Positions 12,958-63,559 of a stretch of DNA of 64,000 nt are shown here, one piece after another. The DNA lies in assembly GCA_030647555.1 (NCBI GenBank), contig JAUSJG010000008.1, positions 1,467 to 65,466 on the forward strand, read 5' to 3'. The notes under the pieces are model-generated. The model searched no databases and was not told where the DNA came from. It was given only the letters and a program-made list of their open reading frames with translations. The position numbers and the translations under genes are program-made. This DNA comes from a bacterium. GTDB taxonomy: Bacteria; Patescibacteriota; Andersenbacteria; UBA10190; CAIZMI01. Every line of letters starts with the position of its first letter. Position 1 is the first letter of the stretch.

Positions 12958-13010
12958 TAGTATGATTTTGCAATAGACAACCGCAAGAAAACAGATAAAA
13001 CTGTAAATAC

Positions 13011-13085: not shown

Positions 13086-13090
13086 ATGTT

Positions 13091-41755: not shown

Positions 41756-42534
41756 ATTTTGTATTCATATTGTGCGCTGAATAAACACCAAAGCCAACCT
41801 TGCCAGCCGTCCAGGATACCGCGCTGACGAATAAATTTTCTGATGAGTTGCTTGAATGCGCGTTCGTGTAAAAAATATATTCTTGAAAACGGATTTGCCG
41901 GAGAAACAGAAACGGATTTGCCTGCACGGTCTTTGCCGATACCAAGCATCTGTTCCGCGTCGGCGCTGGAATATTTTTCTTGGCGCTCTTTGTAACCCGC
42001 AATTGTTTGATAGTGGCTGTGGTGGAGAATGAAATTATTTGATCTGCCTGAATCCGGAGCGCCAAATTGGATGCGCGTATTGTCGCTTTTGCGCACCACT
42101 TGTTCGTGCACCAAGCTGTCGTTCCAGCGCGCATGTTCACGACTGAATAATCTTAAATTATTGCCGGCCAAATGTTTTAGCGGACGGCCGAGAAAAACTG
42201 TGATAATTCTTAGCCAGTAGAAATTGAATTGTGGTGTTTCTAAAATAGCGCGCAGTTCGATGTTTAGCTCCGATGTTATTTCTTCATCCGCGTCAATTTG
42301 TAGAATAAAGTCGCAATTGGTTTTACTGACGGCAAAGTTTTTTTGCGGACCATAGCCAAGCCAATTTTGCTGAAAAACTTTATCGGTAAAACGCTTGGCG
42401 ATATTGACGGTATTGTCGGTGCTACCACTATCAACAACAATTATTTCTGTGGCTAAATTCTTAACACTGGCAAGAGCAGTTGCAAGAAATTTTTCTTCAT
42501 TTTTTACAATACAAATTACGGCCAGGGTTTTCAT
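41719..42534 (-). CDS. glycosyltransferase family 2
   Basis: VICIVKNEEKFL...IIVVDSGSTDNT, plus a DAD motif. Confidence 0.8.
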   Translation of the reverse strand: MKTLAVICIVKNEEKFLATALASVKNLATEIIVVDSGSTDNTVNIAKRFTDKVFQQNWLGYGPQKNFAVSKTNCDFILQIDADEEITSELNIELRAILETPQFNFYWLRIITVFLGRPLKHLAGNNLRLFSREHARWNDSLVHEQVVRKSDNTRIQFGAPDSGRSNNFILHHSHYQTIAGYKERQEKYSSADAEQMLGIGKDRAGKSVSVSPANPFSRIYFLHERAFKQLIRKFIRQRGILDGWQGWLWCLFSAQYEYKMCRKYLALLKQK

Positions 42535-43238
42535 TTTGTTTGATATGTTGACGCAACCTCCGCGATTGTCGCAAAACGAACTGGAAGGTGGCGGATAAAG
42601 CGTAAGTGCGACTCGAGACTATGAAGTTGTACAGAATGAAGCTCGTTTGCTTGATTAACATGATGATAAGTTTCAATTAGCCATTTATTACCCCAATAAG
42701 CTTTTAGCGCCCAAAGATTCCATTTCAAAACTGAAAAATTATTTCTTGATGCATTAAAAGTGTTTAGAGCAAAAAAATCTTTTGGTGGTAAATTTTCCCA
42801 ACCACGTTTCGTTGTGCGGGCAGCAGAAAAATATTGGGAGGAAATTTCTTTCACGCGCTTGTCGAACGCGCCACCCGGATAAATCAGTGTAGTTGCATTA
42901 GTTTTTTCTTTGCTCTCCTTTAATTCTTTTTGAATTTGCTCATCGGAAAGGGAAGGGAGTGGTACGTGGCTTAGGCCGTGCGCCGCTAATTCGTGTCCCT
43001 TTTTGGCGCAATAATCTTTCCATGTGTCTAGTGATAAAACGGATGTATTTGGAGGCACAACAACTTTTTTTGCGTTCACGGGGACGGCAACTGTTGCCCT
43101 GAAGCCATATTTTTCAAAAAGCGGCAAAGCCTCCGACATAATTTCGGAATATCCATCATCGAAGACGAAAGAAATTATACCGCGAGGTTTTAACATGTGG
43201 TCATTTGTGAATGGTCTCGTTTTTGCGGAGTGTATCAA
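42531..43238 (-). CDS. polysaccharide deacetylase (NodB-homology domain)
   Basis: ISFVFDDGY metal-binding DD motif. AAHGLSH His motif. Confidence 0.75.
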   Translation of the reverse strand: MIHSAKTRPFTNDHMLKPRGIISFVFDDGYSEIMSEALPLFEKYGFRATVAVPVNAKKVVVPPNTSVLSLDTWKDYCAKKGHELAAHGLSHVPLPSLSDEQIQKELKESKEKTNATTLIYPGGAFDKRVKEISSQYFSAARTTKRGWENLPPKDFFALNTFNASRNNFSVLKWNLWALKAYWGNKWLIETYHHVNQANELHSVQLHSLESHLRFIRHLPVRFATIAEVASTYQTK

Positions 43239-43248
43239 CCAAGGAGTA

Positions 43249-43438
43249 ATCTGTAGTTTGTATATAGTATATGGTATATAGTATATTAATTTTAGGGGCC
43301 TTCATTTTTCGTTGTGGTTAATTCAGACCGTGAATCTGGTCGTAAATTTATTTTTCACGCGCGCTACTAAATTCGATTTTAGAAGGTGGTAATTTGTAGT
43401 TAATAATTCCATATACTATATACCAAATACAATATACT
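43249..43438. mobile_element. MITE-like element, family 1, copy 4
   Basis: tgtatatagtatatggtatatagtatattaat ... taataattccatatactatataccaaatacaatatacta. Confidence 0.7.
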
Positions 43439-43440
43439 AA

Positions 43441-44466
43441 TCAGAATCCAATCCGCTTAAACACTTCGATATTCTTATTGCACCAGTCGAAAAGTTTTGT
43501 GACCCCATCAACAGGTGTAACTTTTGGTTCCCATCCCAAGACATTTTTGGCTTTATCAATGTTGCTGATATAGACAGGTTGATCACCAGGGCGCCAGTCA
43601 CTGCTTTTAAGCGGAATTTCACGGCCGAGGAATTTTTCCAACATTGGAAATATTTCCTTGATAGCCAAAGCCTTATCTGGCCCACCGCCGATATTAAATA
43701 CTTGGCCACTTACTTTACCGATATTTTCTACGCCCAGTTCATAGGCGCGGGCAAGATCTTCGACATATAATACGTCGCGGACTTGTTTGCCATCGCCATA
43801 AATGGTGATATTTTTTTGAAGCAAAGCGGCAATGGTAAACCACGCGATCCAACCCTGATCTTCCACGCCATATTGACGTGGGCCATAAATGCAGGATTGA
43901 CGGAAAACAATCGTTCGTAATCCGTAGATGCGGGCATAGTCGCGAACATACTGATCGGCCGTGCCTTTGGAACAACCGTATGGTGAGTGGAAATCTAATA
44001 GGCGGTCTTCGCGGATTCCTTCCGGCAAGTCGCGATATTTATAGCGCGTGCCATCATCAATAACCACAATATCTTCCATGCCACCGTAAACTTTATTGGT
44101 AGAGGCGTAAATTAATACCGGATTGGCCTTTGTGGTGCGGATTGCTTCCAGTAGATTCAGTGTGCCGACGACATTGATTTCAAAATCCTCGCGCGGATTG
44201 GCGACCGAAGTGGTGACGGCAACTTGTGCCGCCAAGTGAAAAACCGCGTCGTGTTTTTGCACTTCTTCCTCCAAAATTTTATTATCGGTGCGCATATCGG
44301 CTTTAATAAAACGAATTGCCGGATGTGTCTGTTGTAGCCACTTTAAATTTTCATCGGTCCCACGACGCGATAGATTATCCAGAACGGTTACTTCCCAGCC
44401 TTTCTTGGAAAAATAATCGGCAAAATTGGTGCCGATAAATCCGCACCCGCCGGTGATGAGTAGCTT
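43441..44466 (-). CDS. NAD-dependent nucleotide-sugar epimerase/dehydratase (extended SDR)
   Basis: MKLLITGGCGFIGTNF Rossmann motif and a YxxxK catalytic dyad. Start moved to the ATG at 44466. Confidence 0.85.
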   Translation of the reverse strand, partial: KLLITGGCGFIGTNFADYFSKKGWEVTVLDNLSRRGTDENLKWLQQTHPAIRFIKADMRTDNKILEEEVQKHDAVFHLAAQVAVTTSVANPREDFEINVVGTLNLLEAIRTTKANPVLIYASTNKVYGGMEDIVVIDDGTRYKYRDLPEGIREDRLLDFHSPYGCSKGTADQYVRDYARIYGLRTIVFRQSCIYGPRQYGVEDQGWIAWFTIAALLQKNITIYGDGKQVRDVLYVEDLARAYELGVENIGKVSGQVFNIGGGPDKALAIKEIFPMLEKFLGREIPLKSSDWRPGDQPVYISNIDKAKNVLGWEPKVTPVDGVTKLFDWCNKNIEVFKRIGF

Positions 44467-45269
44467 CATTTCTTTTTGGCGACGTAGAAGATTCCGGTGG
44501 CAATCATCCAAGGAGAAAGAGAATTCATTATTTTTTTAATCAAGACACCAAACCAGTTCAGGCGGTACGGTTCTTTACCGCGCAATATCGGCCAATCCAC
44601 CCATAGTCCATAATGACTGGACGGTTCCGGTAGGTCGTGTGGATCGATTTCCATTACTTCAAAGCCCATTCCTTCTAATAAGACGCGAATATCGCCCTTA
44701 CGAAAAACATGACTGGTAAATACCGCTTTTTGGCTCATGAGTTTGGCCCGAACAAAGTATTCCAGACTCTTCATTGGAAAATAGGTGTAACGACGGAGCG
44801 GGTTGCCATAAGGAACTTCCAGAAAAAGATAACCACCTGTTTTCAAAATTCTTTTTGCCTCTTCCGCAACCTGTTTTGTCTTGTCTTCCGCATATTCCCA
44901 AACCCCGATCGCCATGTAGCCGTCAAAAGAATTGTCCGCAAAGGGGAGGTGTAATACATCAGCGGTTTGTACCGGTAAATCAGGATATGCTTGTTTGGCT
45001 AAGGCGATGGCCTTTTTGGAATTATCCACGCCTTCCACGTCAAAACCGCGTGCCCGCATAAAAGCAATCCAGGCCGCGAGGCCACAACCGGCATCCAAAT
45101 AATGTTTCCCCTTTTCTAAGTACTTTGTGACCAATGGGTAGAAGAGTTGTTTGCGGTACTCTTCCGGGTCGTCTTTCTGTAATCCATCCGCCTCATATTC
45201 GCGGTCCCAGTTTTCGGTTGGCTGCACTCCGTCTTGATAAAACTTGCGTAATTTATAGTAGCTGTACAT
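44466..45269 (-). CDS. class I SAM-dependent methyltransferase (paralog of 48788..49579)
   Basis: LDAGCGLAAWIAFMRARGFDVEGVD. Conserved C-terminus PHDLPEPSSHYGLWVDWPILRGKEPYRLN. Start moved to MYSYYKLRKF by alignment with the paralog. Confidence 0.7.
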   Translation of the reverse strand: MYSYYKLRKFYQDGVQPTENWDREYEADGLQKDDPEEYRKQLFYPLVTKYLEKGKHYLDAGCGLAAWIAFMRARGFDVEGVDNSKKAIALAKQAYPDLPVQTADVLHLPFADNSFDGYMAIGVWEYAEDKTKQVAEEAKRILKTGGYLFLEVPYGNPLRRYTYFPMKSLEYFVRAKLMSQKAVFTSHVFRKGDIRVLLEGMGFEVMEIDPHDLPEPSSHYGLWVDWPILRGKEPYRLNWFGVLIKKIMNSLSPWMIATGIFYVAKKK

Positions 45270-45329
45270 AAGTGATGATAATAGGATACAGGTAAAACAC
45301 CTCGTTCGACAAGGCTTTTTTACTTTAGG

Positions 45330-45381
45330 GACTGTCCCTAAAGTAGCGCATACTGCATACAAAATACTGTATACTGCATAC
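45330..45381. repeat. degenerate family-1 terminus-like sequence immediately upstream of GT4 start
   Basis: gcgcatactgcatacaaaatactgtatactgcatac resembles the right terminus catatactatataccaaatacaatatac. Preceded by the hairpin tagggactgtcccta. Confidence 0.35.
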
Positions 45382-46530
45382 ATGACTAAAATTGCCTATA
45401 TTACAAACGCGCCGCCACAAGCAGGGATGGGGAAACCGGCACGAGAGATTTATAGCAGAATTAACCCCCCCCTTAGTCCCCCCTTGAATAATGGGGGATA
45501 CGTGGCGGATTTCTTTTATCTCGATGCCAGTAAAAGAGAACTATTAAAAAATGATGTAAAAATCGCGGAAGTGAGCAATCTGCCAAAACCTTTACAGTTG
45601 AAACCGATTCAGTGGTGGCGTCTGGCGCGTCAATTACCCACAGAAGGTTATGACCTTTGGCACATTACAAATCAGACGTTGTCGTTTATTCCACGGCAAG
45701 ATTTTCTATTGACTGTTTATGATTTGATTGAACTATTGGAACCGCAAGAAAAATTTGGGAAATACGTTGCGCAATATCTATACAAAGGAATTCCTAAGGC
45801 GAAACACATTATTTGTATCTCGGAATATACCAAAAAGATGTTACAGCAAGCCTACGCCGTACCTGATGAAAAAATCACCATTATCCCGTTGGGGGTTGGG
45901 GAACATTTCAAACCAATCGAAGGGGTACGAGAAAGTATCGCCTATCATGAACTGCTGGCGCAAAATAATTTACCGAAAGACGCGAAAATCATTTTGTATG
46001 TCGGGTCGGATCATCCGCGTAAAAACTTGAATTTGCTGGCCGGGGTTTTGACGAAAGTTAAAGCGCGGGTGCCAAACGCGTATTTGGTGAAAGTGGGTGA
46101 CCCTGGTCTAATGGCGGGTCGTATCGATTTTCAAGATAAATTAGCCGAACTGGGGCTAACTGATGCTGTGCGCTTCATTAGCAATGTCGGTGATGAAAAA
46201 TTACGTTTATTGTATGCATCAGCGGATGTCTTCGTTTTTCCGTCTTTCTATGAAGGTTTTGGGATCCCACCATTAGAAGCGATGGCGTGCGGAACGCCGG
46301 TTGTTTGCTCCAATGCCACTAGTTTGCCGGAAGTAGTTGGGGACGCGGGGTTGTTGCATGATCCGACGGACGTTGAGGGTTTTGCCACGTCAATTACTAG
46401 GATTTTAACGGACACGAATTATTCTGCGGAGTTGAGTCGCAAAGGATTGGAAAGAAGCAAGATGTTTTCGTGGGAGGGGATTGCGCAAAAGACGGCGGAA
46501 GTGTATCGGAGAATGACGGCGAGTATTTAG
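45382..46530 (+). CDS. glycosyltransferase family 4
   Basis: [41 protein letters not shown]. Confidence 0.85.
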
Positions 46531-46535
46531 TATTT

Positions 46536-46666
46536 TGTATATAGTATATGGATTTATCAATAACAAACGTCGAGTGTTGTGTAGATGATATATATAGTTA
46601 AGGTTAAAAACAATTTACGAATGTTGTTGCTACTTCCATATACTATATACCAAATACAATATACAA
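46536..46666. mobile_element. MITE-like element, family 1, copy 5
   Basis: tgtatatagtatatggatttatc ... cttccatatactatataccaaatacaatataca. Confidence 0.7.
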
Positions 46667-46708
46667 AAATCTTGACGATAACGATGTAATATAATATGAT
46701 TAAACACG

Positions 46709-48589
46709 ATGAGTGAAAGAAAGTTATCGATTGGAGATCGTGTCATCGGTTCGGGCGAGCCCTGTTTTATCATCGCCGAAGCTGGTGTGAATCATAATGG
46801 TAGTTTGGCGCGTGCCAAACAATTGATTGACGCGGCGAAGGCTTCCGGTGCGGACGCGGTGAAATTTCAAAAACGCGACCTGGAAGAAATTTATCAGAAA
46901 AAGGTGTTAGACAATCCAAACGATTCCGAGCAAAAATATCAATTTTTGATTCCTATGCTAAAGGAATTTGAGTTGAGCGATGATCAATTTAAGGAACTGG
47001 AAAAATATGCCAAAGAAATTGGTATTATGTTTTTGGTTAATCCTTGGGACATCAAGAGCGCGGATAAGTTAGAAGAATTGTTTGATATTCCGTTTTATAA
47101 AATAGGGTCACCGGATTTAACTAATTCGGAATTGCTGTCGCACGTGGCGAATTTTGGTAAACCGATGGTTTTGTCGACTGGAATGAGTACGACCGATGAA
47201 ATTAAGGAAACGGTAAAACTATTGGAAGAAAAGAAAGTGAATTTCGCGTTACTGCATTGTAATAGTACGTATCCGGCACCGTTCGATAAAATAAATTTGA
47301 AGTTTATGGAAAAGCTGCGTGAATTTGGAGTGCCGGTTGGTTATTCCGGGCACGAGCGTGGCATTACAGTGGCGATGGGCGCAGTGGCGATGGGGGCGTC
47401 AATTATTGAGCGTCATCTTACTACCGATAAAACGTTGGAAGGAACGGATCATAAGGCCAGCTTGTTGCCGGAAGAATTTAAGCAAATGGTGCAAGGAATT
47501 CGTGAAGTTGAAATGTCGCTGGGCAAAGCGGAACGCGTTTTGTCACAAGGCGAGATGATGAACCGCGAGATTCTTGGAAAAAGTATTATCGTCGGAAAAT
47601 TTATTCCCGATGGCACTGTGATTACTCGTGAGATGTTGGAAATAAAAAGTCCGGCCAAAGGTTTATCACCACAGCGCCTAAAAGATGTTGTGGGTATTGT
47701 CGCCCAGCGCGATATTTTTGCCGGTGAATTTATTACGGAAGATGATTTGAAAGACGATAATTTGATGCGTGATTTTAAGAGTACGGATATTAAATGGCGC
47801 TGGGGCATTGTCGTGCGGTTTCATGATTTCCAAAAATACTTGCCATACGAGCCAAAATTGTTTGAATTTCATTTGAGTGACAAGGATTTGGAGATGAACT
47901 TGCCTGAAGGTAATTTCAAACAAGAGCTAGTTGTTCACGCGCCGGAGTATAGCTATCGTACTTACTTAAATTTGGTTTCCGTTAACAAAGAAGAACGGGA
48001 ACTGGCACTGAAGAATTTGCAAAAGAGTCTGGATTTAACGAAAAAACTGGCGGAAAAATTCACAGGTAAACCCAAATTTGTGTTTCACTCCGGTGGTGTT
48101 ACTTTGGCGCCATATGAAAAACCGCAAGAATTGGTGCAAATCCTTATCGATATGATAGGCCGATTAAAAGGAGATGGAGTGGAAATTCTGCCGGAAAATT
48201 TACCGGCGCGGAATTGGATCTTTGGTGGTGAATATGTAACGAATATATTTATGTTTGCCGATGAAATCAAAAAGATTTTGGATCAAACCGGTCTCAAGAT
48301 GTGCTTTGATACCTCGCATTCAATGTTGGCTTGTAACATGCATAATATTGATATTTACGAAGAAATTAAAAAGTTGCGACCATATATTAGTCACATGCAT
48401 ATTTCAGACGGCGCGGGCGTAGGAGAAGAGGGTCTTCAGGTTGGTAAGGGAGAAATTGATTGGGCGAAATTGATGGGTGTGATGGATGGCTATCAAAATA
48501 CAATGGTGCCCGAAATTTGGCAGGGTCATTTACACAATGGACGTGGATTCTTTCAGGCACTAACACACTTGAAGGGATATATGCGATGA
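46709..48589 (+). CDS. NeuB-family nonulosonic acid (sialic/legionaminic/pseudaminic-type) synthase fused to a C-terminal xylose-isomerase-like TIM-barrel (sugar phosphate isomerase/epimerase) domain
   Basis: N-terminal CFIIAEAGVNHNGSLARAKQLIDAAKASGADAVKFQKR NeuB motif plus a SAF-like segment around residues 290-340. The C-terminal ~290 aa has the AP_endonuc_2/TIM pattern FHSGG...CFDTSHS...HISDG. Confidence 0.7.
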   Translation: MSERKLSIGDRVIGSGEPCFIIAEAGVNHNGSLARAKQLIDAAKASGADAVKFQKRDLEEIYQKKVLDNPNDSEQKYQFLIPMLKEFELSDDQFKELEKYAKEIGIMFLVNPWDIKSADKLEELFDIPFYKIGSPDLTNSELLSHVANFGKPMVLSTGMSTTDEIKETVKLLEEKKVNFALLHCNSTYPAPFDKINLKFMEKLREFGVPVGYSGHERGITVAMGAVAMGASIIERHLTTDKTLEGTDHKASLLPEEFKQMVQGIREVEMSLGKAERVLSQGEMMNREILGKSIIVGKFIPDGTVITREMLEIKSPAKGLSPQRLKDVVGIVAQRDIFAGEFITEDDLKDDNLMRDFKSTDIKWRWGIVVRFHDFQKYLPYEPKLFEFHLSDKDLEMNLPEGNFKQELVVHAPEYSYRTYLNLVSVNKEERELALKNLQKSLDLTKKLAEKFTGKPKFVFHSGGVTLAPYEKPQELVQILIDMIGRLKGDGVEILPENLPARNWIFGGEYVTNIFMFADEIKKILDQTGLKMCFDTSHSMLACNMHNIDIYEEIKKLRPYISHMHISDGAGVGEEGLQVGKGEIDWAKLMGVMDGYQNTMVPEIWQGHLHNGRGFFQALTHLKGYMR

Positions 48590-48646
48590 TTAAGACGTAT
48601 GTCTTTGCGAGGGGTATCAACCCCGAAGCAATCTCTAGAAATTCTT

Positions 48647-48784
48647 TGTATATAGTATTTGGTATATTGTATATGGAATTATTTTGTGAGATTGGCTTTC
48701 TACTGTTTCGGGAATATAAAACACTAGTGTCGCCTTACGTGGTTAAAGTTTGATAAATCAATATACTAAATACTATATACTAAA
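48647..48784. mobile_element. MITE-like element, family 1, copy 6 (ends 3 bp before MT start codon)
   Basis: tgtatatagtatttggtatattgtatatggaatta ... aatcaatatactaaatactatatactaaaac. Confidence 0.7.
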
Positions 48785-48787
48785 ACT

Positions 48788-49579
48788 ATGTACGCACTTG
48801 AAAAGTTCTATCCCAAAGGTTTTGACCCGGCACGTTACTGGGAGGATCGCTATGCGCAAGAACATGCGGCGGGAAAAAGTAGTGAAGAATACGCCAAACA
48901 AGAATTTTGGCCACTAATGGAAAAATATCTTTCTAAAGAAAAACTCTACTTGGATGCCGGCTGTGGAATTGGTGGCTGGATAATTTTCCTCAAAGAACAG
49001 GGCTACAACGTAGAGGGTATTGATATTGCAGCACGTACGCTTCGGGCGCTTATGGAATATGATCCTGATTTAAAACTTAAAATGGCGACGATGACTGGGA
49101 TTCCGTACACCGATAGTTCGCTGGATGGGCTACTGTCTATCGGAACATTGGAATATGTGAAAGACAAAGTCCCGGTTGCTTTAAAAGAAGTGAGTCGTGT
49201 CCTAAAGAAAGATGCTGTATTTTTTATGGAAGTGCCGATTGCAAATATATTGAGAAAAATAATTTATATTCCACTCAAAAAAATAGAGCGAATGATCAAG
49301 ATGTGGCAGGGGCTGACGCCAACGTTTAGTAATTATCTTTTTGATAAGGAAAACTTTCTTAATCTGCTCAGCGAAAATGGTTTTGAAGTATTAGAAGTAA
49401 AACCACATGAATTGCCAGACAGAGATAGTCATTATTGTTTGTATGTGGATTATCCTTTTCTGCGAGGTAAAGAGCCGTATAAATTGAATGTTCTAGGTAA
49501 GTTAATGAAAAAAGTAGCAAATGCCATCTCGCCATGGATCGCGTCGACTGGTATGGTGGTAGTGGCAAAAAAACTTTAG
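48788..49579 (+). CDS. class I SAM-dependent methyltransferase (paralog of 44466..45269)
   Basis: LDAGCGIGGWIIFLKEQGYNVEGID. Shares the C-terminal PHELPDRDSHYCLYVDYPFLRGKEPYKLN block with its paralog. Confidence 0.75.
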   Translation: MYALEKFYPKGFDPARYWEDRYAQEHAAGKSSEEYAKQEFWPLMEKYLSKEKLYLDAGCGIGGWIIFLKEQGYNVEGIDIAARTLRALMEYDPDLKLKMATMTGIPYTDSSLDGLLSIGTLEYVKDKVPVALKEVSRVLKKDAVFFMEVPIANILRKIIYIPLKKIERMIKMWQGLTPTFSNYLFDKENFLNLLSENGFEVLEVKPHELPDRDSHYCLYVDYPFLRGKEPYKLNVLGKLMKKVANAISPWIASTGMVVVAKKL

Positions 49580-49657
49580 GGTGTATCTTTAAAGTATCAA
49601 CTTTAAGGATACACCCTAAAGTTCCAGATCCTCATCCATTATTCATAAATCACTATC

Positions 49658-50464
49658 ATGAACGATTTTGAAAAATTCGCGCTTAAGGGGAAAACGGTAT
49701 TAATTACAGGCGGAGCCGGTTTTTTGGGAAAAATATTTGGCAAGGCCGTTGCTCACGCTGGTGGCAATGTGGTTTTGGCCGGTTTAATATTGGAAGATGC
49801 TGAAAAGGCGGCGCAAGCGATAGCGACTGAAACCGGTGGGCAAGCGATGGGCGTAATGATGGATGTGACCAGTAAGGCGGGAATTACAGCAGCCATTGAG
49901 GCAGTAACCGCCAAATTTGGGAGCTTAGATGTGGTGGTAAATAATGCCGGGCTGGATCCCAAATTTGATGCCTTGTCCCTCTCAAATGAAACGATGTTCG
50001 AAAATTATCCGGAAGAGTTTATCCGGAAGAGTCTGGAAGTAAACTTGCTTGGCGCAACATTGGTGGCACAAGCTTCTGTCAAATACATGATGGGTCAAGG
50101 AAGTGGAAACATTATTAATATTTCCTCGCTCTATGGTATCAACGGCCCGGATCAAAAAATCTATCCGGAAGGAAAACAAAAGCCAGTTGATTATTCAATT
50201 TCAAAAGGTGGGTTAGTGATGCTGACAAAATGGCTGGCTACAACCTATGCAATAAAGGGTATTCGCACGAATACGTTAACCTTGGGTGGAGTATTTCGTG
50301 ATAATACCGAAGACTTTATGAAAAAATATGGAGCCAAAGTACCAAACGGAAAAATGGTAGGTCAAGACGAGGTTGGTGCGCCACTGGTTTTCTTGGCGTC
50401 GGATGCGTCTACTGGTGTGAACGGGTGTAATCTGATCGTAGACCACGGTTTCTCGGCGTACTAA
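49658..50464 (+). CDS. SDR-family oxidoreductase
   Basis: KTVLITGGAGFLGK Rossmann motif. NNAG. YxxxK (YSISKGG). Confidence 0.85.
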   Translation: MNDFEKFALKGKTVLITGGAGFLGKIFGKAVAHAGGNVVLAGLILEDAEKAAQAIATETGGQAMGVMMDVTSKAGITAAIEAVTAKFGSLDVVVNNAGLDPKFDALSLSNETMFENYPEEFIRKSLEVNLLGATLVAQASVKYMMGQGSGNIINISSLYGINGPDQKIYPEGKQKPVDYSISKGGLVMLTKWLATTYAIKGIRTNTLTLGGVFRDNTEDFMKKYGAKVPNGKMVGQDEVGAPLVFLASDASTGVNGCNLIVDHGFSAY

Positions 50465-50620
50465 TAATAGTCGTCGTGTACGTTCAATTCCAGCCGTCGC
50501 TAAAGCTATGGCCGGCGGGCATGAATTGCCCAAAATAAATACGACTGACTTAAATAAAAAAATGAGCTTTATTTTGAAGCTCATTTTTGGAAGTTTTGTT
50601 TGCGAAAACGGATTAACCGC

Positions 50621-50662
50621 GACCGTTCACGGAACGGAGCAACCCTGCTCCGTTCCGTGAAC
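50621..50662. repeat. 19-bp-stem hairpin, member of a 2-copy hairpin family (other copy 56928-56967)
   Basis: ccgttcacggaacggagca accc tgctccgttccgtgaacgg. Confidence 0.55.
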
Positions 50663-50669
50663 GGTGCAG

Positions 50670-50770
50670 AGTTCCGACGTCCCGCCCTTTAGGGCGAGGC
50701 TCGCCCCGATGGGCGGCCGATTCCCGATTTCCCGCCCTTCAGGGCGAGGCTCGCCCCGATGGGCGGCTGA
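50670..50770. repeat. two tandem GC-rich REP-like units (family 3, inverted relative to 12802-12836)
   Basis: cccgccctttagggcgaggctcgccccgatgggcgg, then cccgcccttcagggcgaggctcgccccgatgggcgg. Confidence 0.6.
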
Positions 50771-50772
50771 CC

Positions 50773-51717
50773 TCAGACTTTTGGCCACTTGGCCGGATCT
50801 ACTTGCATTGGGTCTTCGATTGCTAGTTCTCGGAGTTTAACTAAAACATCATCTGGTAATGGTCCTGCGGAAACCGCGGCAACCATTCCGGCAATACGTT
50901 CCGGTTTTGTTGTGCCCATCAAGGCCGTGGAAACGGCGGGGTTACTAATTACAAAGCGCATCGCAAGCGTTGGTAAATCCATTCCCAACTCCGTCGCAAT
51001 TTTTTCGGCTTGACGAGAATTTTCTTTTAATACCGAAAGTTGCTCCGGCAGTTGTTCTCGGCGCGTTGGTGTAAGTGAGCCTTTCAGCAAAACAGATCGG
51101 TTGATAATCCCCACATCGTTTTTCATCGCTTCTGTCATCACGTTGGCCACCATACGCTGATCCACAACACTGTGGGCCAGTTGCAGAGTCTCAAAAAAAT
51201 TAGTTTTAATGGCTACGAGGGGTGCTTCTTCACCGCGCGTGGAAATGCCGACGTGTTGAACTTTTCCAGAATTAATTAATTCGCGGAGGATGTCAGCGAT
51301 TTCACCGCGTTCGATTTGTTCGGCCGTAGCGTAATGTAGTTGTAGTAATTGCAGGGAATCGGTTTGCAGTTTTCTCAAACTTTCTTCGACATCGCCGACA
51401 ATTAGTTGTTTCAATTCGTCACCATGTGGATCGATGCCTTTTTCTAACGGCATGCCACACTTTGTGCCGATCACAATATCTGGAATTTTTCCAATACCGG
51501 ATTTGCCAATGCGTTCTTCAGATAGTCCATAACCGCGCGCGGTATCAATATAATTTATTCCCGCATCGATGGCTGTCTTCAGGATTGTAATAGCCGTTTG
51601 TTCGGATGGTACCTCTTTTTTGCCGATACCATACTCAAGACCAAGTTCGACTGTGCCTAAGCCAAGCACAGTGACTTCGAGTTCGGAACTTCCTAATTTC
51701 TTTTTTAATAGTGTCAT
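50773..51717 (-). CDS. aldo/keto reductase
   Basis: LGLGTVELG...IDTARGYG, the AKR catalytic tetrad region. Confidence 0.85.
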   Translation of the reverse strand: MTLLKKKLGSSELEVTVLGLGTVELGLEYGIGKKEVPSEQTAITILKTAIDAGINYIDTARGYGLSEERIGKSGIGKIPDIVIGTKCGMPLEKGIDPHGDELKQLIVGDVEESLRKLQTDSLQLLQLHYATAEQIERGEIADILRELINSGKVQHVGISTRGEEAPLVAIKTNFFETLQLAHSVVDQRMVANVMTEAMKNDVGIINRSVLLKGSLTPTRREQLPEQLSVLKENSRQAEKIATELGMDLPTLAMRFVISNPAVSTALMGTTKPERIAGMVAAVSAGPLPDDVLVKLRELAIEDPMQVDPAKWPKV

Positions 51718-51770
51718 ATGGATTTTATGTTACGAGGAGTGAGGGAATAGTCAAATTGATAGGGTATGTT

Positions 51771-52268
51771 TTAGTCACAACGGATGTCGCCGTCTGCTGG
51801 AGTGTTATCGTTAGACGCCCAAACAAAATATATGTTTTCGCTTTCTTTCGGTTTATAGTTTTTCAAATATTTTTCTCTCAATTCATACCACGGACTGTCA
51901 AGACGTTCATTGCCATCAGGAAAATAAACTCCTGCTGTAAAAAAATCATATGGATAGAATTTTTCTAATTCTTCTTTTGCTATTGGGCTTGAGCGGAACT
52001 CGCCTGCAATAAATTCACAATAAGTGCCATCTGCCCAATTTCCCACTTCCGCCACTTCTGTTATCAGGTTTGATTGAGTTGGATGAAACGATTCTATTTG
52101 CTGGCGAAAATTATTCTGAAAAACCTTTAAGTGATAATTATTAAATGGAATTTTGTATGTCATATATATAGCAAATAAAGTAGCGAGCAGTAAAAATACT
52201 GAAATGATGGTGGCACCTGATATAATTGTTATTTTGTAAAATAATTTCATTTGTTTTATTTTAACCAA
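51771..52268 (-). CDS. hypothetical membrane-anchored protein
   Basis: N-terminal TM helix. 165 aa. Confidence 0.4.
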   Translation of the reverse strand: MVKIKQMKLFYKITIISGATIISVFLLLATLFAIYMTYKIPFNNYHLKVFQNNFRQQIESFHPTQSNLITEVAEVGNWADGTYCEFIAGEFRSSPIAKEELEKFYPYDFFTAGVYFPDGNERLDSPWYELREKYLKNYKPKESENIYFVWASNDNTPADGDIRCD

Positions 52269-52447
52269 TCTTGGGCTAATTTATAAAATTCGTTGACTAT
52301 TTGTAAGCCACGATCGTTCGGTTGCGGACTGTTATGTGGGTCTTTGTGTTTTAAAGAATAAATTTTTAAGTTTTCATCAATAAAAACCAGGCTTCTCTTT
52401 TTAGTATCAGTGGCAATTAAAATTATTTTAATAACATTCTTATTCAT
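52256..52447 (-). CDS. hypothetical small protein
   Basis: 63-aa ORF overlapping the next gene by 13 bp. Weak. Confidence 0.25.
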   Translation of the reverse strand: MNKNVIKIILIATDTKKRSLVFIDENLKIYSLKHKDPHNSPQPNDRGLQIVNEFYKLAQDWLK

Positions 52448-52539
52448 AAGTTTTTATATTAACATATGTTAACATTACTTAATTATAGGTCTTAATTTCT
52501 TTAGGTCAATATCTCGTTATAGCTAATAAATAGTGTTAC

Positions 52540-52775
52540 CGAAACCGTCTACATGAGGAGTTACGTGACGGTAACCGCTCACAGGTTAAGGAAATAGCCG
52601 TAGCGGTCACATTGAAGGTGGTGCACGCTTGCACTTCCTCCGATGTGGACGACGGTTCGCGTTGACGCAAACCTTCTACCACTTCCGATGAAGGCCAAGC
52701 GTGGCCCACATCGGAAGTGAGTGCGACGATTCTTCGTTTTCCTTAACCTGTGAGGGGTTACCTAATCGGACATTT
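52540..52775 (+). ncRNA. candidate structured RNA (unknown class) in 660-bp ORF-free region upstream of CMP-sugar synthetase gene; strand uncertain
   Basis: Long-range complementarity between cgctcacaggttaaggaaa (52577-52595) and ttccttaacctgtgagggg (52740-52758). Nested hairpins include cacttccgatg...catcggaagtg. No protein-coding potential. Confidence 0.3.
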
Positions 52776-53153
52776 TGATTTTTTGGCTGATTTGGCATAA
52801 ATTGTTTATATGGCACAGTAGCAAATTGTTCAAAGCAACTCGGTTTATATTTATTCCTCAAAAAACAACATATCGCAGGAATTAAGGACGGGAGGAAACG
52901 GGTATTACGATGTATTGGGAATTACGGCTGATATTTGGGGGCGAGATCTTAAATACCGTTCTAAATAAAAAGCCGTCCTCCGCGAGGAGGACGACCCTTG
53001 GATGTGATACCCTTTCAGTTACGACTAACTGAAAGACACAAGAATACTAGCAGGCAGGTAGTGGTTTGTCAAGGGCAATGGGTGGAATTATGAAGGACAA
53101 CAGGTAGAAAAATGAATTATTTATCACTAACATCAGGAGAATACACCAATAAT

Positions 53154-53972
53154 ATGAAGATCGTGAATTCAAACCCTAAACGTAACCCAGTAAATGTAAT
53201 CGCGCTGATTCCAGCGCGTGGTGGGCAACAAAGTATCAAGTACAAGAATCTCTCCAGGCTTGGTAAAAAATCCTTATTACAATGGGCGATTGAAACGGCC
53301 ATGACCTCTAAAATGATTGATGCGGTGGTAGTGTCTACGGAGGATAAAAAAATTGCCAGAGAAGCAAAGAAGTTTGGTGCTTTAGTTGCACCGCGTCCGG
53401 CTGAATACGCACAGGCAACAAGCGGTGACGCCGGTTTTTATACGCACGCTGTTCAATGGTTGGAGCAGGAATTTGGATGGAAACCGGAATATATCGTTAA
53501 TCTGCGACCAACTACACCGTTGCGTTTTTCGGAAGATGTTGATGCAATGATTGAATACGTTCAGAAGAGTGGTGCGGACGGTATAAAAAGTGTGATGCAA
53601 ACTCCTGTTCATACTTATAAAATGTGGACATTCGCGGGAAACGCGAATAAAAAAATTGGTGAAGCCGGACAGATGAGTCCGATTTTAAACGACGAATACC
53701 GAAAACTGCATGGTCCCGATCAGCCGCGTCAGCGGGTTTTTGAAATGTATCCGCAATATTGGCAGGATGGCCAGGTGGATATTACCCGTCGAAAATTTAT
53801 ATTACGTCCGGAGTGTCTGAAATATGAAAATGTTTTTGGGCCGAACTTGCACGGCTATGTTTTGGATGGACGCTTGATTGCCGATATCGACAGTGAGAAA
53901 GATCTTATCCGGGCAGAAAAGTTGTACAAACAGTACCTTTTAGAAAAGAAGCAGAATTTGTCGAACTACTGA
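53154..53972 (+). CDS. acylneuraminate (CMP-nonulosonic acid) cytidylyltransferase family
   Basis: VIALIPARGGQQSIKYKNL...LLQWAI is the CMP-NeuAc/CMP-Kdo synthetase N-terminal motif. Start moved to MKIVNS after an aggaga RBS. Confidence 0.75.
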   Translation: MKIVNSNPKRNPVNVIALIPARGGQQSIKYKNLSRLGKKSLLQWAIETAMTSKMIDAVVVSTEDKKIAREAKKFGALVAPRPAEYAQATSGDAGFYTHAVQWLEQEFGWKPEYIVNLRPTTPLRFSEDVDAMIEYVQKSGADGIKSVMQTPVHTYKMWTFAGNANKKIGEAGQMSPILNDEYRKLHGPDQPRQRVFEMYPQYWQDGQVDITRRKFILRPECLKYENVFGPNLHGYVLDGRLIADIDSEKDLIRAEKLYKQYLLEKKQNLSNY

Positions 53973-54066
53973 TATTTTCACATTAGCTTAATGTTTATTG
54001 CCCCCAATTATGGCTAATATAAGCTCGTAATAGGCACAAAAAAGTTAAGTTAATGTGAAAATATCA
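53969..54066. repeat. palindrome with 23-bp arms overlapping the stop codon of 53154..53972
   Basis: ctgatattttcacattagcttaa ... ttaagttaatgtgaaaatatcag. Confidence 0.5.
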
Positions 54067-54094
54067 GTAGATTAATATAAGCGAAAGCAATATT

Positions 54095-54237
54095 TGTATA
54101 TTGTATTTGGTATATAGTATATGGAATTATCGACTGTTGCGAAAATAAATTGGCAGATTGGGGCTATCTCTACCATCTGTGCTACATGAACGCTCGGATT
54201 AAATAAACCCATATACTAAATACTATATACAATATAC
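54095..54237. mobile_element. MITE-like element, family 1, copy 7
   Basis: tgtatattgtatttggtatatagtatatggaatta ... aacccatatactaaatactatatacaatatact. Confidence 0.7.
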
Positions 54238-54257
54238 TGGTAAAAGACTTCAGTCTT

Positions 54258-55463
54258 TTACACTAGTTTCTGAATTTCTTCCATCGTCCTCTGACAAGAA
54301 GAGCCATCAAGGAAAGTGATGATATTCTTACAGCTCTGCACTCGACCATCACGGTCTTTTTCAGGGTGCTCCAAGTAGTCATTAATTGCGGGAATTAAAT
54401 CTGGTCGTTTTTTAATGACACGTACCCCGCCACCGGAAACTATGTCGCGATAATGTTCCTTAAAGTCCTTAACCACCATCGACTTTCTCCAGTTCCACCA
54501 ATCGAGTGGTTTGCCATAGAGTACGCAAATGGTCGGGCGATCGCCAAGCATTGATTCCACGGCGGCAGATGAAGAAAAATTAACCATCACGTCGGTGTAT
54601 TTCCAGAGTGCCACGAGCATATACATTTCGCGCATCGTGGGGTTGAAGTTGAAATCTTTGTGTGGGGAATTGTCACGGCGTCCGAAAGAATAACGCAGGG
54701 TGTAATTATATTTATCGGCCCAATGTTGGTGCATCGCCGGCTTGCCACTTCCTGGGTGCATGGAAGCATAAAGTTGTAAATCGGCAGGAAGGCTTCCGTC
54801 TTGTTTCGCGATACCGATTTGTTCGGCGACATTCGACATGTCATACAGTTCGACGGTGGCGACATGCAAAAGTCGCTTGTTTGGATCTAAGCCGATGTAT
54901 TCAAAAAGTTCTTCACGTGAAGGGATTCTATTTGTGTGAGAGAAAAGATCGAGGCGTGGCGCACCGGTCACCGCAACCTGTTCTTCTTTGATGTCCGTAA
55001 ACTCGCGAAGTAAATGGTCTTTCATTATTTGATTCCAGACGATAATTTTATCGGGAATAACTTGCTCCGACCGTAGTCGTGCCATTTTCCAAATATTGTC
55101 CCAGGATTCAATGAAAGTGCAGGTTTTTAAACCCAGTTTTTTAGCAACGCGAAGAATTGGGCGATCAACGACATCGCGCCCCGTTGTTGTGGTTAATACC
55201 AAATCTGGTTGATATTTTTTGTAGATCGTTTCTAGTTTGGTTTCCGTTTCCGGTTTATCCCAGGCTTCTGATTTTATGTCTTCAAAGGTAAAACGGTGGC
55301 GCGGATACTCCGAAGCAGGGAAAAATTCATCTGCCCATGGCGCGCCGGGAGAAACGATAACGTAATTCCAAGTATATTTATTAATCAAAAGCTCACGCAT
55401 TGGCTGGAGCAGGGCGCGGTGATGAGAGCCGGAAGGGACGGAGATAACAATGGTGGCATTCAT
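54258..55463 (-). CDS. putative GT-B-fold glycosyl-/glycerophospho-transferase (TagF/capsule-synthesis-like), uncertain family
   Basis: ~400 aa. Lies beside the CMP-sugar synthetase gene, suggesting a CMP-sugar-using transferase. No signature confidently matched. Confidence 0.35.
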   Translation of the reverse strand: MNATIVISVPSGSHHRALLQPMRELLINKYTWNYVIVSPGAPWADEFFPASEYPRHRFTFEDIKSEAWDKPETETKLETIYKKYQPDLVLTTTTGRDVVDRPILRVAKKLGLKTCTFIESWDNIWKMARLRSEQVIPDKIIVWNQIMKDHLLREFTDIKEEQVAVTGAPRLDLFSHTNRIPSREELFEYIGLDPNKRLLHVATVELYDMSNVAEQIGIAKQDGSLPADLQLYASMHPGSGKPAMHQHWADKYNYTLRYSFGRRDNSPHKDFNFNPTMREMYMLVALWKYTDVMVNFSSSAAVESMLGDRPTICVLYGKPLDWWNWRKSMVVKDFKEHYRDIVSGGGVRVIKKRPDLIPAINDYLEHPEKDRDGRVQSCKNIITFLDGSSCQRTMEEIQKLV

Positions 55464-55655
55464 ATGATTAAAGTATCAGATAAATTTATAAGAACCAAAT
55501 GGATTTGAATTGTTTAGGGATGATTCTGTAAAAGGATTATTCCTAAATAGCGTTACGACGTATTGACGCAAACTATAACTTATAGTATGCTACCTTATTC
55601 CCTGAAAGCGTTTCGGGGTTTGTGTTCTGTGAATAATTTGCGAAGGGTATGAAAG

Positions 55656-56840
55656 ATGCCAAGTAAAAAAGCGAAAAAACGATTTCTAGTGGTCGCCGCC
55701 CATACAGGTAGCTTCCTCAATGGTCCTCTGCCGGTGGCGCGTTTACTTCGAGAGATGGGGCACGATGTTTCGGTATGCTTGCAGACTGGGCAATCGGCTT
55801 ACGATTCGTGGAAGTCGAGTGGCAAGGTTTGGCAGGAGCTCAAATGGTTCGATGTCGCCGGAAAGAGCGGTGCATGGCCGCAGCTCAAGTCAACGTTTGA
55901 TGCAGTGCTTCTGGCAATGTCGCCGGTCATTGGAGCCAATTCTGAGATCGGTGCGTTGATGATGGCACATGAAGACGGGGTTCCGGCTTTTGGGGTATCG
56001 GATTTTCCGGGGAGTTTGCGGAATCCGGGCTGGCGTGATTATGTTCGTCACTTGACCACGCTTTTCTCCCCGATGCCCGAACCGAATTTTCCTGGAAAGT
56101 GTGTCGTCTCCGGCTGGGGTGCGTTGGAAAAATGGCGCAACAAAGATGTTGGCGCCATGGCTTATGCTACACGTCTCAAGCTCGGTATCGGTCATGAACC
56201 GGTGCTGTACGTTTTCTTTTCTCCGGAGCGCGAATCGCCATTGGCCTTGGAACACTTGGCGATTTTAATTCGAGAAGTGGATATCGACGGCATTACGATA
56301 GTGGTCAATCGTCACGGGCGTGAAAAAAGTACGCCCGTTGATGGGAACGCTCGAAGATTCCGAGTGGCGCTTTGCTTGCTTGGTGAAAATAATCGTGTTT
56401 TCGATAACAGCCCGGAGTATTCCGAATTTCTCAGTTTGGATGAACGTTCGATTTTGCCACAGTTTCGACCGGATGAGTTTCTTGAATATCAGGAGGCCTT
56501 AACTTTGGCCAGAGGAAATGGGGTTGCCCTAACGATGTTCGGGACGGATGGTTTACTCGCACCGTATCTGGCTTCGAGTGGGATTCTTTCGGTGTGCTGG
56601 CTTGATCCTGTTTATGGTGGTGCCGTTCTAAAACGTGAGAAGCAAGTTGAGCGGCTCGATTTGCCTATCCTTTGGCAGCCGACGAATGATCTGGATTTGC
56701 TCACATGCATCGACAGTGGGTTGCGTGGACGTTCCGATGCACGTGAGAAGCAGATTGAATTGTTAGAACAACAGTATCCGTTTCCGAAATCGTCTGCACC
56801 GCAGATCATCGTCGACGAGATCTTGCGACAACTGGGTTAG
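55656..56840 (+). CDS. hypothetical protein (possible GT-B-like fold) encoded in GC-rich island
   Basis: Local GC is about 55-58%. N-terminal FLVVAAHTGSFLNGPLPVARLL resembles a GT-B N-terminal Rossmann strand. Followed by a terminator. Confidence 0.35.
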   Translation: MPSKKAKKRFLVVAAHTGSFLNGPLPVARLLREMGHDVSVCLQTGQSAYDSWKSSGKVWQELKWFDVAGKSGAWPQLKSTFDAVLLAMSPVIGANSEIGALMMAHEDGVPAFGVSDFPGSLRNPGWRDYVRHLTTLFSPMPEPNFPGKCVVSGWGALEKWRNKDVGAMAYATRLKLGIGHEPVLYVFFSPERESPLALEHLAILIREVDIDGITIVVNRHGREKSTPVDGNARRFRVALCLLGENNRVFDNSPEYSEFLSLDERSILPQFRPDEFLEYQEALTLARGNGVALTMFGTDGLLAPYLASSGILSVCWLDPVYGGAVLKREKQVERLDLPILWQPTNDLDLLTCIDSGLRGRSDAREKQIELLEQQYPFPKSSAPQIIVDEILRQLG

Positions 56841-56906: not shown

Positions 56907-56927
56907 TTAAGTTTTGCGAACCTGTGT

Positions 56928-56967
56928 CCGATCACGGAACGGAGCAATCTTGCTCCGTTCCATGATC
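56928..56967. repeat. hairpin repeat (second copy of 50621-50662 family)
   Basis: ccgatcacggaacggagca atct tgctccgttccatgatcgg. Confidence 0.55.
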
Positions 56968-57017
56968 GGTGTTGGTTCGTTGCTGGCAGAAAAAGAAATA
57001 AAGAGTATAACTAAGAA

Positions 57018-58335
57018 CATGACTAACAAAATTTCTCCTCTAGAATCGTTTCGAACAACTCTAAGAGAAGTCGGTGGCAAAATGAATTTGCGCAAAGATG
57101 TAATCGAAATATTAAGTTATCCGCAACGGGTGATAGACGCGTATATTCCAGTTGAAATGGATAACGGGTCGATGCGAATTTTTCACGGGTATCGCGCGCA
57201 GCACCAAAATGCGCGTGGGCCATATAAGGGAGGCATTCGTTTCCACCCGGATGTAGATGAACAAGAAGTGCAGGCATTGGCGGCTTGGATGACCATGAAA
57301 ACAGCAGTTGTAGATATTCCGTTCGGCGGTGCAAAAGGTGGTGTGGCTTTGAACCCGATGGAGTTGTCGGACAGGGAATTACAACGTCTTACTCGGGCCT
57401 TTGTGCAAACATTAGGTGAAGCCATTGGTCCAAACGTTGATGTGCCGGCGCCGGATGTAAATACGAATGGGCAAATTATGGCGTGGGCGGCGGACGAGTA
57501 CAGTCGTCTGCATCAAGGGGCACCGCACGTTGAAGCAACTTTCACGGGTAAGCCTATTTCGGTGGGTGGTAGCTTGGGCAGAGAAGAAGCAACCGGTTAC
57601 GGCGGAATCTTGGTTTTGCAAAACTTCCTGACGCGCAAAAATATCGCCAAGGACGGTCTAAAAGTGGCAGTACAGGGTTTCGGCAATGTGGGTTCCTATT
57701 TCGCGCGGTTTGCCCATAATAACGGCATGCACGTGGTGGCGGTTTCCGACTCGCGTGGTGGAATCTATAATTCCGATGGCCATGATGTTGATGCGGTGGT
57801 GGCCGGTCAAAAACGCGCCGGTCATTTGGAAAAGAATGTTTGTTATCCGCGGATTGGTGTTGCTGAAGCGGGTCAAAAAGCCAGCGAGTGTTCTCCGATT
57901 ACCAACGCGCAATTGTTGGAATTGCCAGTAGACATTTTGGTGCCGGCGGCATTGGAAAATCAAATTACCGCCGAAAATGTCGAAAAAATTCAAGCAAAGA
58001 TAATTATCGAGATGGCCAACGGACCAATTACGCCGGAAGCGGATGTGATTTTAGCGCGTCGTGGCATTATTGTTATTCCCGATATTTTAGCAAATGCCGG
58101 CGGCGTCACAGTCAGTTACTTTGAATGGGTACAAAATTTGCAGAATCTTTATTGGACCAAGGAAGAAGTGAATTCTCGGTTGGAACAAAAAATGGCCACT
58201 TCATCAAATGATGTTTTTGATATTGCCGATAAAGAAAAAGTTACAAACCGCGAAGCGGCATACCGAATTGCTCTGGCACGCGTTCAAGAAGCGATGGTGC
58301 TTAAGGGTTGGGTACCGGCGCAGGTGAAGGGGTAA
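57018..58335 (+). CDS. gdhA: NAD(P)-dependent glutamate dehydrogenase
   Basis: KGGIRFHPDVDEQEVQALAAWMTMKTAVVDIPFGGAKGG is the GDH signature. Start moved downstream of the hairpin repeat. Confidence 0.9.
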
Positions 58336-63486: not shown

Positions 63487-63559
63487 GAGTAACTGTTGAA
63501 TAGAATAGCCCAAAAAGGCCCAAAAGTCTATTGAATTAAGGCTTGTTTTGAGTGTTTTT

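Follow-up and report, generated by a model that had tools for sequence, protein, structure and literature searches.

We analyzed a 64,000-nucleotide stretch of a patescibacterial genome (GenBank assembly GCA_030647555.1, contig JAUSJG010000008.1, positions 1,467 to 65,466; hereafter the window, from whose first letter all coordinates without another source are counted). It contains a glycan locus that runs from ~38.5 kb to the gene for a MurJ-type flippase at 61900–63573. The subject of this work is a forward-strand gene of this locus, at 46709–48589, whose open frame of 626 codons encodes a NeuB–SAF–AP_endonuc_2 fusion, as assigned from Pfam, NCBIfam, AlphaFold models, and homologues. Pfam placed a NeuB domain (PF03102) at residues 39–275 (E-value 4.9e-84; 282 bits compared to a gathering cut-off of 22.1), a SAF domain (PF08666) at residues 293–348 (4.8e-08; 33.9 bits), and an AP_endonuc_2 domain (PF01261) at residues 406–622 (1.6e-24; 87.4 bits compared to a cut-off of 31.1), with the complete metallo-TIM barrel spanning residues ~360–626. 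An AlphaFold model of the full-length protein, built on homologue alignments, had a predicted local distance difference test score (pLDDT) of 93.5, and a model of the C-terminal part alone was an 8-stranded TIM barrel with a pLDDT of 96.0. A first-pass annotation of this DNA had proposed that NeuB is fused here to a xylose-isomerase-like barrel, quoting the motif CFIIAEAGVNHNGS, which we found in the translation. The Pfam NeuB and AP_endonuc_2 matches and the confident model show that the fusion is genuine, and the C-terminus matches AP_endonuc_2 besides SAF, not SAF alone. The protein has three domains, and the barrel is added to the SAF domain rather than taking its place.

We judged the class of the NeuB half by NCBIfam scores and signature residues. 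E24, K52, Q54, K131, S134, N185, Y188, H215, H236, and D247 aligned with the metal and phosphoenolpyruvate (PEP) residues of Neisseria meningitidis NeuB (NmNeuB; PDB 1XUZ). Like the fusion, which matches it with an E-value of 4e-53, NmNeuB consists of a NeuB barrel and a SAF/antifreeze-like domain, and its metal-binding His residues and PEP-binding Lys, Ser, and Asn are also present in the fusion. The best NCBIfam model was NeuB/NnaB (TIGR03569) at 350.9 bits, under its equivalog cut-off of 399.65, and the PseI equivalog (TIGR03586), for which the fusion scored 240.8 bits, was missed at a cut-off of 340.25. Compared to NmNeuB, the aligned fusion has Asp136 for Glu134, Ser314 for Arg314, and an extra Lys-Arg behind the KFQ motif (KFQKR). 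This signature of KFQKR, Asp136, and Ser/Gly314 was common to all barrel-associated NeuBs that we examined, whereas two distant unfused NeuBs retained the Glu and Arg residues. Arg314 is said to have been found essential for N-acetylneuraminic acid (Neu5Ac) synthesis in work by Joseph and colleagues from 2013. Because this residue is Ser in the fusion, N-acetylmannosamine is disfavored as its substrate. The signature of the barrel-paired NeuB clade suggests that its substrate differs from the one used by ordinary bacterial NeuB.

The kinship of the barrel was assessed with a profile built from 45 sequences. Its top match was MJ1311 from Methanocaldococcus jannaschii (3.9e-16); members of the endonuclease IV (Endo IV) family matched at 5.8e-08 to 6.4e-04, E. 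coli-type Nfo chains matched more weakly (E-values of 0.005–0.08), and ketose 3-epimerases were not significant in this search (0.1–0.5). Structure comparison gave Z-scores of 26.0 for MJ1311, 24.1 for Art22 isomerase, 23.9 for TM0416, and 23.4 for Endo IV from Mycobacterium tuberculosis. D-psicose/tagatose 3-epimerases and the 3-keto-glucoside 4-epimerase YcjR were also structural neighbors (Z 22–24), and members of the xylose isomerase-like family scored Z 20–26 against the barrel model. MJ1311 (PDB 3WQO, named a 'D-tagatose 3-epimerase-like protein') is the closest solved relative, with a root-mean-square deviation of 2.4 over 237 residues, 22% identity, and the motifs VVHAP, HPGG-like, ENMP, DxxH, and HxHxxD in common. 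It differs in being a stand-alone protein and in having His after a conserved Glu (DDEH) where the fusion family has an invariant Glu-Gly. A 2014 paper on MJ1311 reportedly found all nine Endo IV zinc ligands conserved and the DNA groove lacking.

Endo IV itself (Nfo; PDB 1QTW and 5ZHZ) has the same fold as the barrel at 14–20% identity. Nfo removes 3'-phosphates from sugars. DNA repair is not expected of the barrel because it is fused to a sugar synthase, and in NCBIfam the barrel did not reach the Nfo equivalog NF002196 (20 bits compared to a cut-off of 333). In a hidden Markov model alignment, H410, H460, E496, D534, H537, H564, and E602 matched H69, H109, E145, D179, H182, H216, and E261 of Endo IV, respectively, in the ligand numbering of PDB 1QTW; the barrel has identical residues at 7 of the 9 trinuclear-metal ligand positions. 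E386, H388, D393, H562, D567, and H607 are also invariant and make the site His-rich. Positions 460 and 496, the counterparts of two residues that bind a single zinc of Endo IV, covaried perfectly across 58 family sequences, being His/Glu in 36 and Asn/Ser/Thr plus Gln in 22. The His/Glu form was found in the window protein and in pairs of separate NeuB and barrel genes; the Asn/Gln form occupied a whole class of family proteins that bear a CBS pair, including a gene on an Ensifer plasmid.

The first-pass annotation called the fusion unusual, a view that did not survive comparison with relatives, in which the architecture is common, or with published descriptions from Leptospira (Ricaldi et al., 2012; PMC3438082) and Serratia (Anderson et al., 2022; PMC9000132). 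The best 120 full-length matches, at 56–95% identity, all had the same three Pfam domains, and >120 clusters at 90% identity shared the NeuB–SAF–barrel architecture. Searching 1.84 billion representatives with the barrel only returned 705 proteins at E≤1e-3, of which 368 also passed E≤1e-10, the 705 being representatives at 50% identity; in nearly all of these 705 the barrel was C-terminal in a NeuB protein of 600–770 aa, and short 'stand-alone' matches were mostly gene fragments on short contigs. The CBS-bearing proteins form a ~750-aa class, ~40% identical to the window protein, with the extra CBS pair at the N-terminus; at one locus with separate NeuB and barrel genes, L057, a CBS pair was C-terminal on the barrel, not N-terminal on NeuB. 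Of 401 genomes sampled from the phylum, 27 contained the barrel, and these came from three families only (4/4 genomes of the window's own family, 18/20 of a sister family in the same order, and 4/4 of one other family). It lay almost always in frames of 625–670 aa, with the few shorter ones mostly at contig ends or in split genes.

Separate genes can also encode the two parts. For 5/5 close unfused NeuBs that we looked up (48–68% identity), the next gene encoded a separate ~270-aa barrel. Such split pairs occurred in the ammonia-oxidizing archaeon Nitrosopumilus sp. b3 (L059, 7001–8868), where the NeuB and barrel genes overlap, in another Patescibacteria genome, and in a flagellin/Maf glycosylation locus; in a relative from the window's order, split NeuB and barrel genes were followed by methyltransferase, short-chain dehydrogenase (SDR), aldo/keto reductase (AKR), and cytidylyltransferase genes. 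No barrel was found within 8 kb of one Yonathbacteria NeuB. Because fusions dominate and close unfused NeuBs have the barrel as the next gene, NeuB and the barrel are an old, fixed functional pair, often fused, in Bacteria and Archaea. The commonest other partner was a CTP_transf_3 gene, which accompanied NeuB and barrel, fused or split, in most of the contexts that we inspected and was not in view at L063 and L064. On the Ensifer plasmid, the sole match in a plasmid search, the module directly follows ManC, a phosphomannose isomerase (PMI)/GDP-mannose pyrophosphorylase. At a divergent fusion locus (L054), the only neighbor besides the cytidylyltransferase gene encodes a 652-aa DUF6716 protein (11921–13879), a candidate nonulosonate transferase or polymerase.

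The host assembly (1.32 Mb in 31 contigs, 96.8% complete) bears out the suspicion of a reduced-genome host: this is a bacterium of the candidate phyla radiation (CPR), and its relatives bear Andersenbacteria/Patescibacteria labels. It encodes a single NeuB. At that completeness, no Epimerase_2/NeuC gene was found in the genome, nor any KdsC-type phosphatase above noise or any amino-sugar gene of the legionaminic (Leg) or pseudaminic (Pse) acid type. The only DegT aminotransferase gene lies ~190 kb away among Mur ligase/FemAB genes, a peptidoglycan context. The genome yielded no member of the classical PMI families PF20511 and PF01050 but did yield a bact-PGI_C protein of the phosphoglucose isomerase (PGI)/PMI type. 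Across the phylum sample, full-length Epimerase_2 occurred in 4/27 barrel-positive genomes, never beside the fusion, compared to 13/28 barrel-negative NeuB genomes, where it often adjoined NeuB, a contrast in which the barrel-positive genomes, coming from three families only, are not independent. One genome of the same order (G209, C2:163947-165883) has, in addition to the fusion, a second, unfused NeuB beside a full-length, NeuC-like Epimerase_2, giving it a canonical pathway in addition to the fused one.

Downstream of the fusion gene, a forward-strand gene at 53112–53972, whose start may be the ATG at 53112 or that at 53154, encodes a candidate CMP-nonulosonate synthetase with a CTP_transf_3 domain (PF02348; 5.6e-18, 66 bits) that scored 89.9 bits against PseF (TIGR03584), under the cut-off of 205.7. 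The earlier view that the fusion belongs to a nonulosonic-acid (NulO) module that includes a CMP-sugar synthetase stands, and every neighbor then named was recovered by Pfam/NCBIfam: the cytidylyltransferase, an epimerase/dehydratase, an SDR, an AKR, two paralogous methyltransferases, and glycosyltransferases (GTs). Just past the cytidylyltransferase stop lies a long hairpin (53966–54070) with 31-nt arms that are 90% complementary, probably a terminator. A plant-miRNA match on this hairpin, the sole Rfam match in 43000–56000, was far under threshold and was rejected as spurious. The gene at 54258–55463 (reverse strand) encodes a candidate nonulosonate transferase, a distant relative of BFO_1060-family/Glyphos_transf-like GTs (NF046086; PF04464 at 24 bits). 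Its NF046086 match (E-value 7.6e-20, 71.3 bits) falls in two stretches, the better covering only residues 79–210, and is under the cut-off of 200, and a sequence search gave no meaningful PDB relative; BFO_1060-like GTs co-occur with the fusion at loci of families f1 and f10. The first-pass proposal that the GT next to the CMP-sugar synthetase transfers the NulO is plausible on the strength of this match.

Directly downstream of the fusion gene are a class-I S-adenosylmethionine-dependent methyltransferase gene (MT2; 48788–49579, forward strand; Pfam and synteny) and an SDR gene (49658–50464, forward strand), the latter PtmA/PRK09186-like with scores of 180 bits for PRK09186 and 137 bits for PtmA, both under cut-off. 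An AKR gene (50773–51717, reverse strand; Pfam, 5.4e-42) converges on the SDR gene, and MT2, SDR, and AKR were syntenic with the fusion in most sampled loci of families f1 and f2 and in L058, a set conserved beside the fusion across the order. Two tandem 50-nt GC-rich copies, 88% identical, between the SDR and AKR genes (50666–50765) are probably a bidirectional terminator structure. Upstream of the fusion gene, Pfam identified a GT4 glycosyltransferase gene (45382–46530, forward strand) and a second class-I methyltransferase gene (MT1; 44466–45383, reverse strand), and Pfam/NCBIfam identified an NAD-dependent sugar epimerase/dehydratase gene of the RmlB/GalE-like type (43441–44511, reverse strand). 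MT1 and MT2 are paralogous (42% identity), and a 59%-identical copy of the epimerase/dehydratase adjoins the fusion in family f10. Neither the epimerase/dehydratase nor MT1 (window 43187–45356) was at this position in L004, a 95%-identical relative; the two genes look like a recent insertion here, with MT1 a duplicate-like paralogue of MT2. Farther upstream, reverse-strand genes at 39502–43238 encode a GT9, a GT4 (GT4a), a GT2, and a polysaccharide deacetylase (Pfam), of which GT4a, GT2, and the deacetylase kept synteny with the fusion in both f1 and f10, and GT9 in f1 only. The glycan locus of the window contained no acetyltransferase gene and no NTP_transferase or GDP-mannose gene.

A 165-aa open reading frame (ORF) at 51771–52268 (reverse strand) had no Pfam or NCBIfam match. 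It is followed by ~840 bp without ORFs, in which a 25-nt inverted repeat occupies 52570–52594 and 52738–52762. The 1.4-kb stretch from 51754 to 53187 had no counterpart in L004, where ~600 bp lie instead, or in other relatives; this strain-specific stretch may be an insertion remnant. We rejected the 165-aa ORF as a pathway gene, since it belongs to no family and relatives lack it. Intergenic gaps at 43257–43440, 46520–46667, 48645–48783, and 54093–54240 hold AT-rich inverted repeats, as do positions 9046–9186, 17154–17296, 29305–29449, 58401–58850, and 59617. Their arms resemble TATATAGTATTTGGTATATAGTATATGG and stand ~85–120 nt apart; at <=5 mismatches, 51 such arms occur in the genome, 16 of them in the 64-kb window. 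These repeats look like REP/MITE-like elements (repetitive extragenic palindromes or miniature inverted-repeat transposable elements) or shared operator/terminator structures flanking glycan genes. A glutamate dehydrogenase gene amid the glycan locus (56914–58335) and a ZnuABC-type zinc uptake system just upstream of it (31538–34015) are probably incidental.

We read the module, tentatively and with somewhat less than even confidence, as a compact pathway to a CMP-activated sugar like deaminoneuraminic acid (Kdn, also written KDN), in which the barrel serves as a phosphoesterase and the product is put on a surface glycan; we infer all of its reactions. The NeuB–SAF part would condense PEP with a mannose-type hexose, most likely a 6-phosphate, which the PGI/PMI-type isomerase of the genome could supply. 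The barrel, as a multinuclear-metal phosphoesterase like Endo IV and MJ1311, would then strip a phosphate, most likely that of the 9-phosphorylated product, following the model of Ricaldi et al. (2012), and would take the place of the haloacid dehalogenase (HAD) phosphatase that vertebrates and Bacteroides use. The CTP_transf_3 enzyme would form the CMP-sugar, MT2, SDR, and AKR might modify the sugar (O-methylation and oxidation/reduction epimerization are examples), and the BFO_1060-like GT would transfer it. A non-aminated, mannose-derived sugar of the Kdn type is proposed because of the gene content, the NeuB signature, ManC in Ensifer, the Epimerase_2 contrast, and the finding of KDN in Serratia (Anderson et al., 2022).

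Several observations count against this pathway. Nothing in the barrel aligns with the Endo IV ligands D229 and H231, whose loop is replaced by a shorter one with an invariant E574-G575, and fold comparison by Foldseek and VIA-align cannot split Endo IV from ketose epimerases/isomerases. The KDN result is carried over by analogy between classes, from the Asn/Gln site form of Ensifer and, as judged from ORF length, Serratia to the His/Glu form of the window protein. Genes for a 4,6-dehydratase and an aminotransferase accompany the NeuB–barrel pair at L059 and L063, and if the sugars made there are 9-deoxy, a 9-phosphatase role would not be general. The roles given to the methyltransferase, SDR, and AKR are guesses.

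Two alternative roles for the barrel appear to us unlikely. The barrel might act as a phosphoesterase at the front end of the pathway, freeing a reducing hexose from an NDP-hexose such as GDP-mannose, or from a hexose phosphate, before NeuB acts; this would replace the NeuC/LegG/PseG step and leave NeuB to use an unphosphorylated sugar. The Endo IV/MJ1311 kinship and the conserved metal site fit this role as well as they fit removal of a phosphate from the condensation product. Epimerase_2 is largely missing from fusion genomes and absent from that of the window, ManC, the maker of GDP-mannose, lies directly upstream in Ensifer, and bacterial NeuB is the best-scoring model for the NeuB domain, all as would be expected if the barrel acted first. 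The same holds for the occurrence of the pair with dehydratase/aminotransferase genes and in the flagellin-glycosylation locus, where 9-deoxy sugars, which cannot carry a 9-phosphate, would be expected. However, we know of no precedent for a protein of this fold hydrolyzing sugar nucleotides, the window locus lacks NTP_transferase and GDP-mannose genes, and the KFQKR, Asp136, and Ser/Gly314 signature of barrel-paired NeuBs suggests a non-ordinary substrate.

We similarly doubt that the barrel is an isomerase, epimerase, or dehydratase that prepares the hexose, for example by a ketose-to-aldose or C2 change, or that remodels the nonulosonate, perhaps with SDR and AKR in an oxidize–epimerize–reduce sequence. 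A coupled isomerization or epimerization was what the first-pass annotation suggested, and it accords with the Pfam AP_endonuc_2 match to a 'xylose isomerase-like TIM barrel', with the presence of Art22, TM0416, 3-epimerases, and YcjR among the structural neighbors, and with the conservation of SDR and AKR beside the fusion in the order; oxidoreductases also lie near the pair in L057, L059, and L063. The window protein keeps both epimerase catalytic Glu residues of strands 4 and 7 (Glu496 and Glu602) and, with D534 and H564, the whole epimerase metal tetrad. The profile search nevertheless separated significant Endo IV matches and MJ1311 (4e-16) from epimerases/isomerases that were not significant. 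An epimerase is also disfavored because the strand-4 Glu is Gln in 22/58 relatives, a residue that a two-base ketose epimerase could not lose, and these relatives include the whole class that apparently holds the KDN-linked Serratia-type genes. The invariant H388, H410, H537, H562, and H607 fit a His-rich hydrolase site, and neither SDR nor AKR genes were beside the fusion at the inspected Serratia-type (L052) and Ensifer loci. From these sequence comparisons, a phosphoesterase role for the barrel seems more likely than an isomerase role.

An aminated product (Neu5Ac, legionaminic acid, or pseudaminic acid), with precursor enzymes elsewhere or precursors derived from the host, is very improbable: NeuB/NnaB is the best NCBIfam model (351 bits), the Leptospira fusion was tied to Neu5Ac by its authors (PMC3438082), some Neu5Ac occurs in Serratia (PMC9000132), the locus has an epimerase/dehydratase, and CPR bacteria may import precursors, but the NeuB score is under cut-off, Arg314 is not conserved, the genome has no NeuC and only the lone DegT in a peptidoglycan context, the locus has no acetyltransferase, and KDN is the main product in Serratia (PMC9000132).

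On the most far-reaching reading, the barrel would be the founding member of a class of Endo IV-derived small-molecule phosphoesterases that serve nonulosonate synthesis, whether by dephosphorylating NulO-9-phosphates or by hydrolysis that releases the precursor, in place of HAD phosphatases and/or NeuC-type enzymes; NeuB–barrel and cytidylyltransferase would form a two-gene route to CMP-Kdn, and nearly every member of the order would carry a methylated/epimerized Kdn-like surface sugar. We advance this wider proposal with reserve, as possible but falling somewhat short of an even chance. Nonulosonic acids shape how microbes are recognized by hosts, partners, and phages, and a Kdn-like sugar, if retained by almost the whole of an order of ~1-Mb episymbiont-type bacteria, would suggest a role in their surface biology. 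If the barrel is a phosphatase, glyco-engineering could profit from the minimal two-gene route to CMP-Kdn that it defines.

One of the closest known systems is that of Serratia marcescens, in which the KL1/KL2 capsule loci contain, of such genes, just neuA and neuB, the latter 2241 bp long and encoding an additional COG1082 domain (Anderson et al., 2022; PMC9000132). Deletion of neuB abolished sialic acid and capsule, neuA was also needed for KDN, and the sugar was KDN at ~20:1 over Neu5Ac, with no other NulO genes in the locus (PMC9000132); the barrel, as part of the neuB gene, is needed for the KDN capsule of clinical Serratia. Both systems combine NeuB with a COG1082/AP_endonuc_2-type domain, pair it with an acylneuraminate cytidylyltransferase, and have no NeuC in the locus. 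The Serratia protein differs in its length of 746 aa, by which ORF length only we place it in the ~750-aa class with an N-terminal CBS pair and Asn/Gln for His460/Glu496, and its locus has no methyltransferase/SDR/AKR set. In Leptospira interrogans, a NulO synthase was described whose C-terminus is an 'endonuclease-like phosphatase' domain, proposed to dephosphorylate a 9-phospho product (Ricaldi et al., 2012; PMC3438082). By this description it too is a NeuB fused to a homologue of phosphodiester-cleaving endonucleases; its authors linked it to Neu5Ac and an animal-like route, in contrast to the Kdn-type sugar proposed here.

The Kdn-9-phosphate/Neu5Ac-9-phosphate route of vertebrates and Bacteroides thetaiotaomicron condenses a phosphorylated hexose with PEP, dephosphorylates the product, and activates it with CMP. 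The step logic proposed for the fusion locus is the same, but the known route employs a HAD/KdsC-type phosphatase where we propose an unrelated TIM barrel. For the transfer step, the precedent comes from Tannerella forsythia, whose Pse/Leg transferases Tanf_01245 / TFUB4_00887 have been proven genetically and have BFO_1060 as their orthologue (Tomek et al., 2017; PMC5420450). The gene at 54258–55463 adjoins the CMP-sugar synthetase gene, as in Tannerella, and its product matches the model named for BFO_1060, although it falls under the cut-off of that family. The fusion in the window is an ordinary instance of a known, under-studied system. Our analysis adds the mapping of Endo IV ligands onto the barrel, the covariation of His/Glu and Asn/Gln with its tie to the CBS class, the split NeuB/barrel gene pairs, including an archaeal one, and the difference in Epimerase_2 occurrence between NeuB genomes with and without the barrel.

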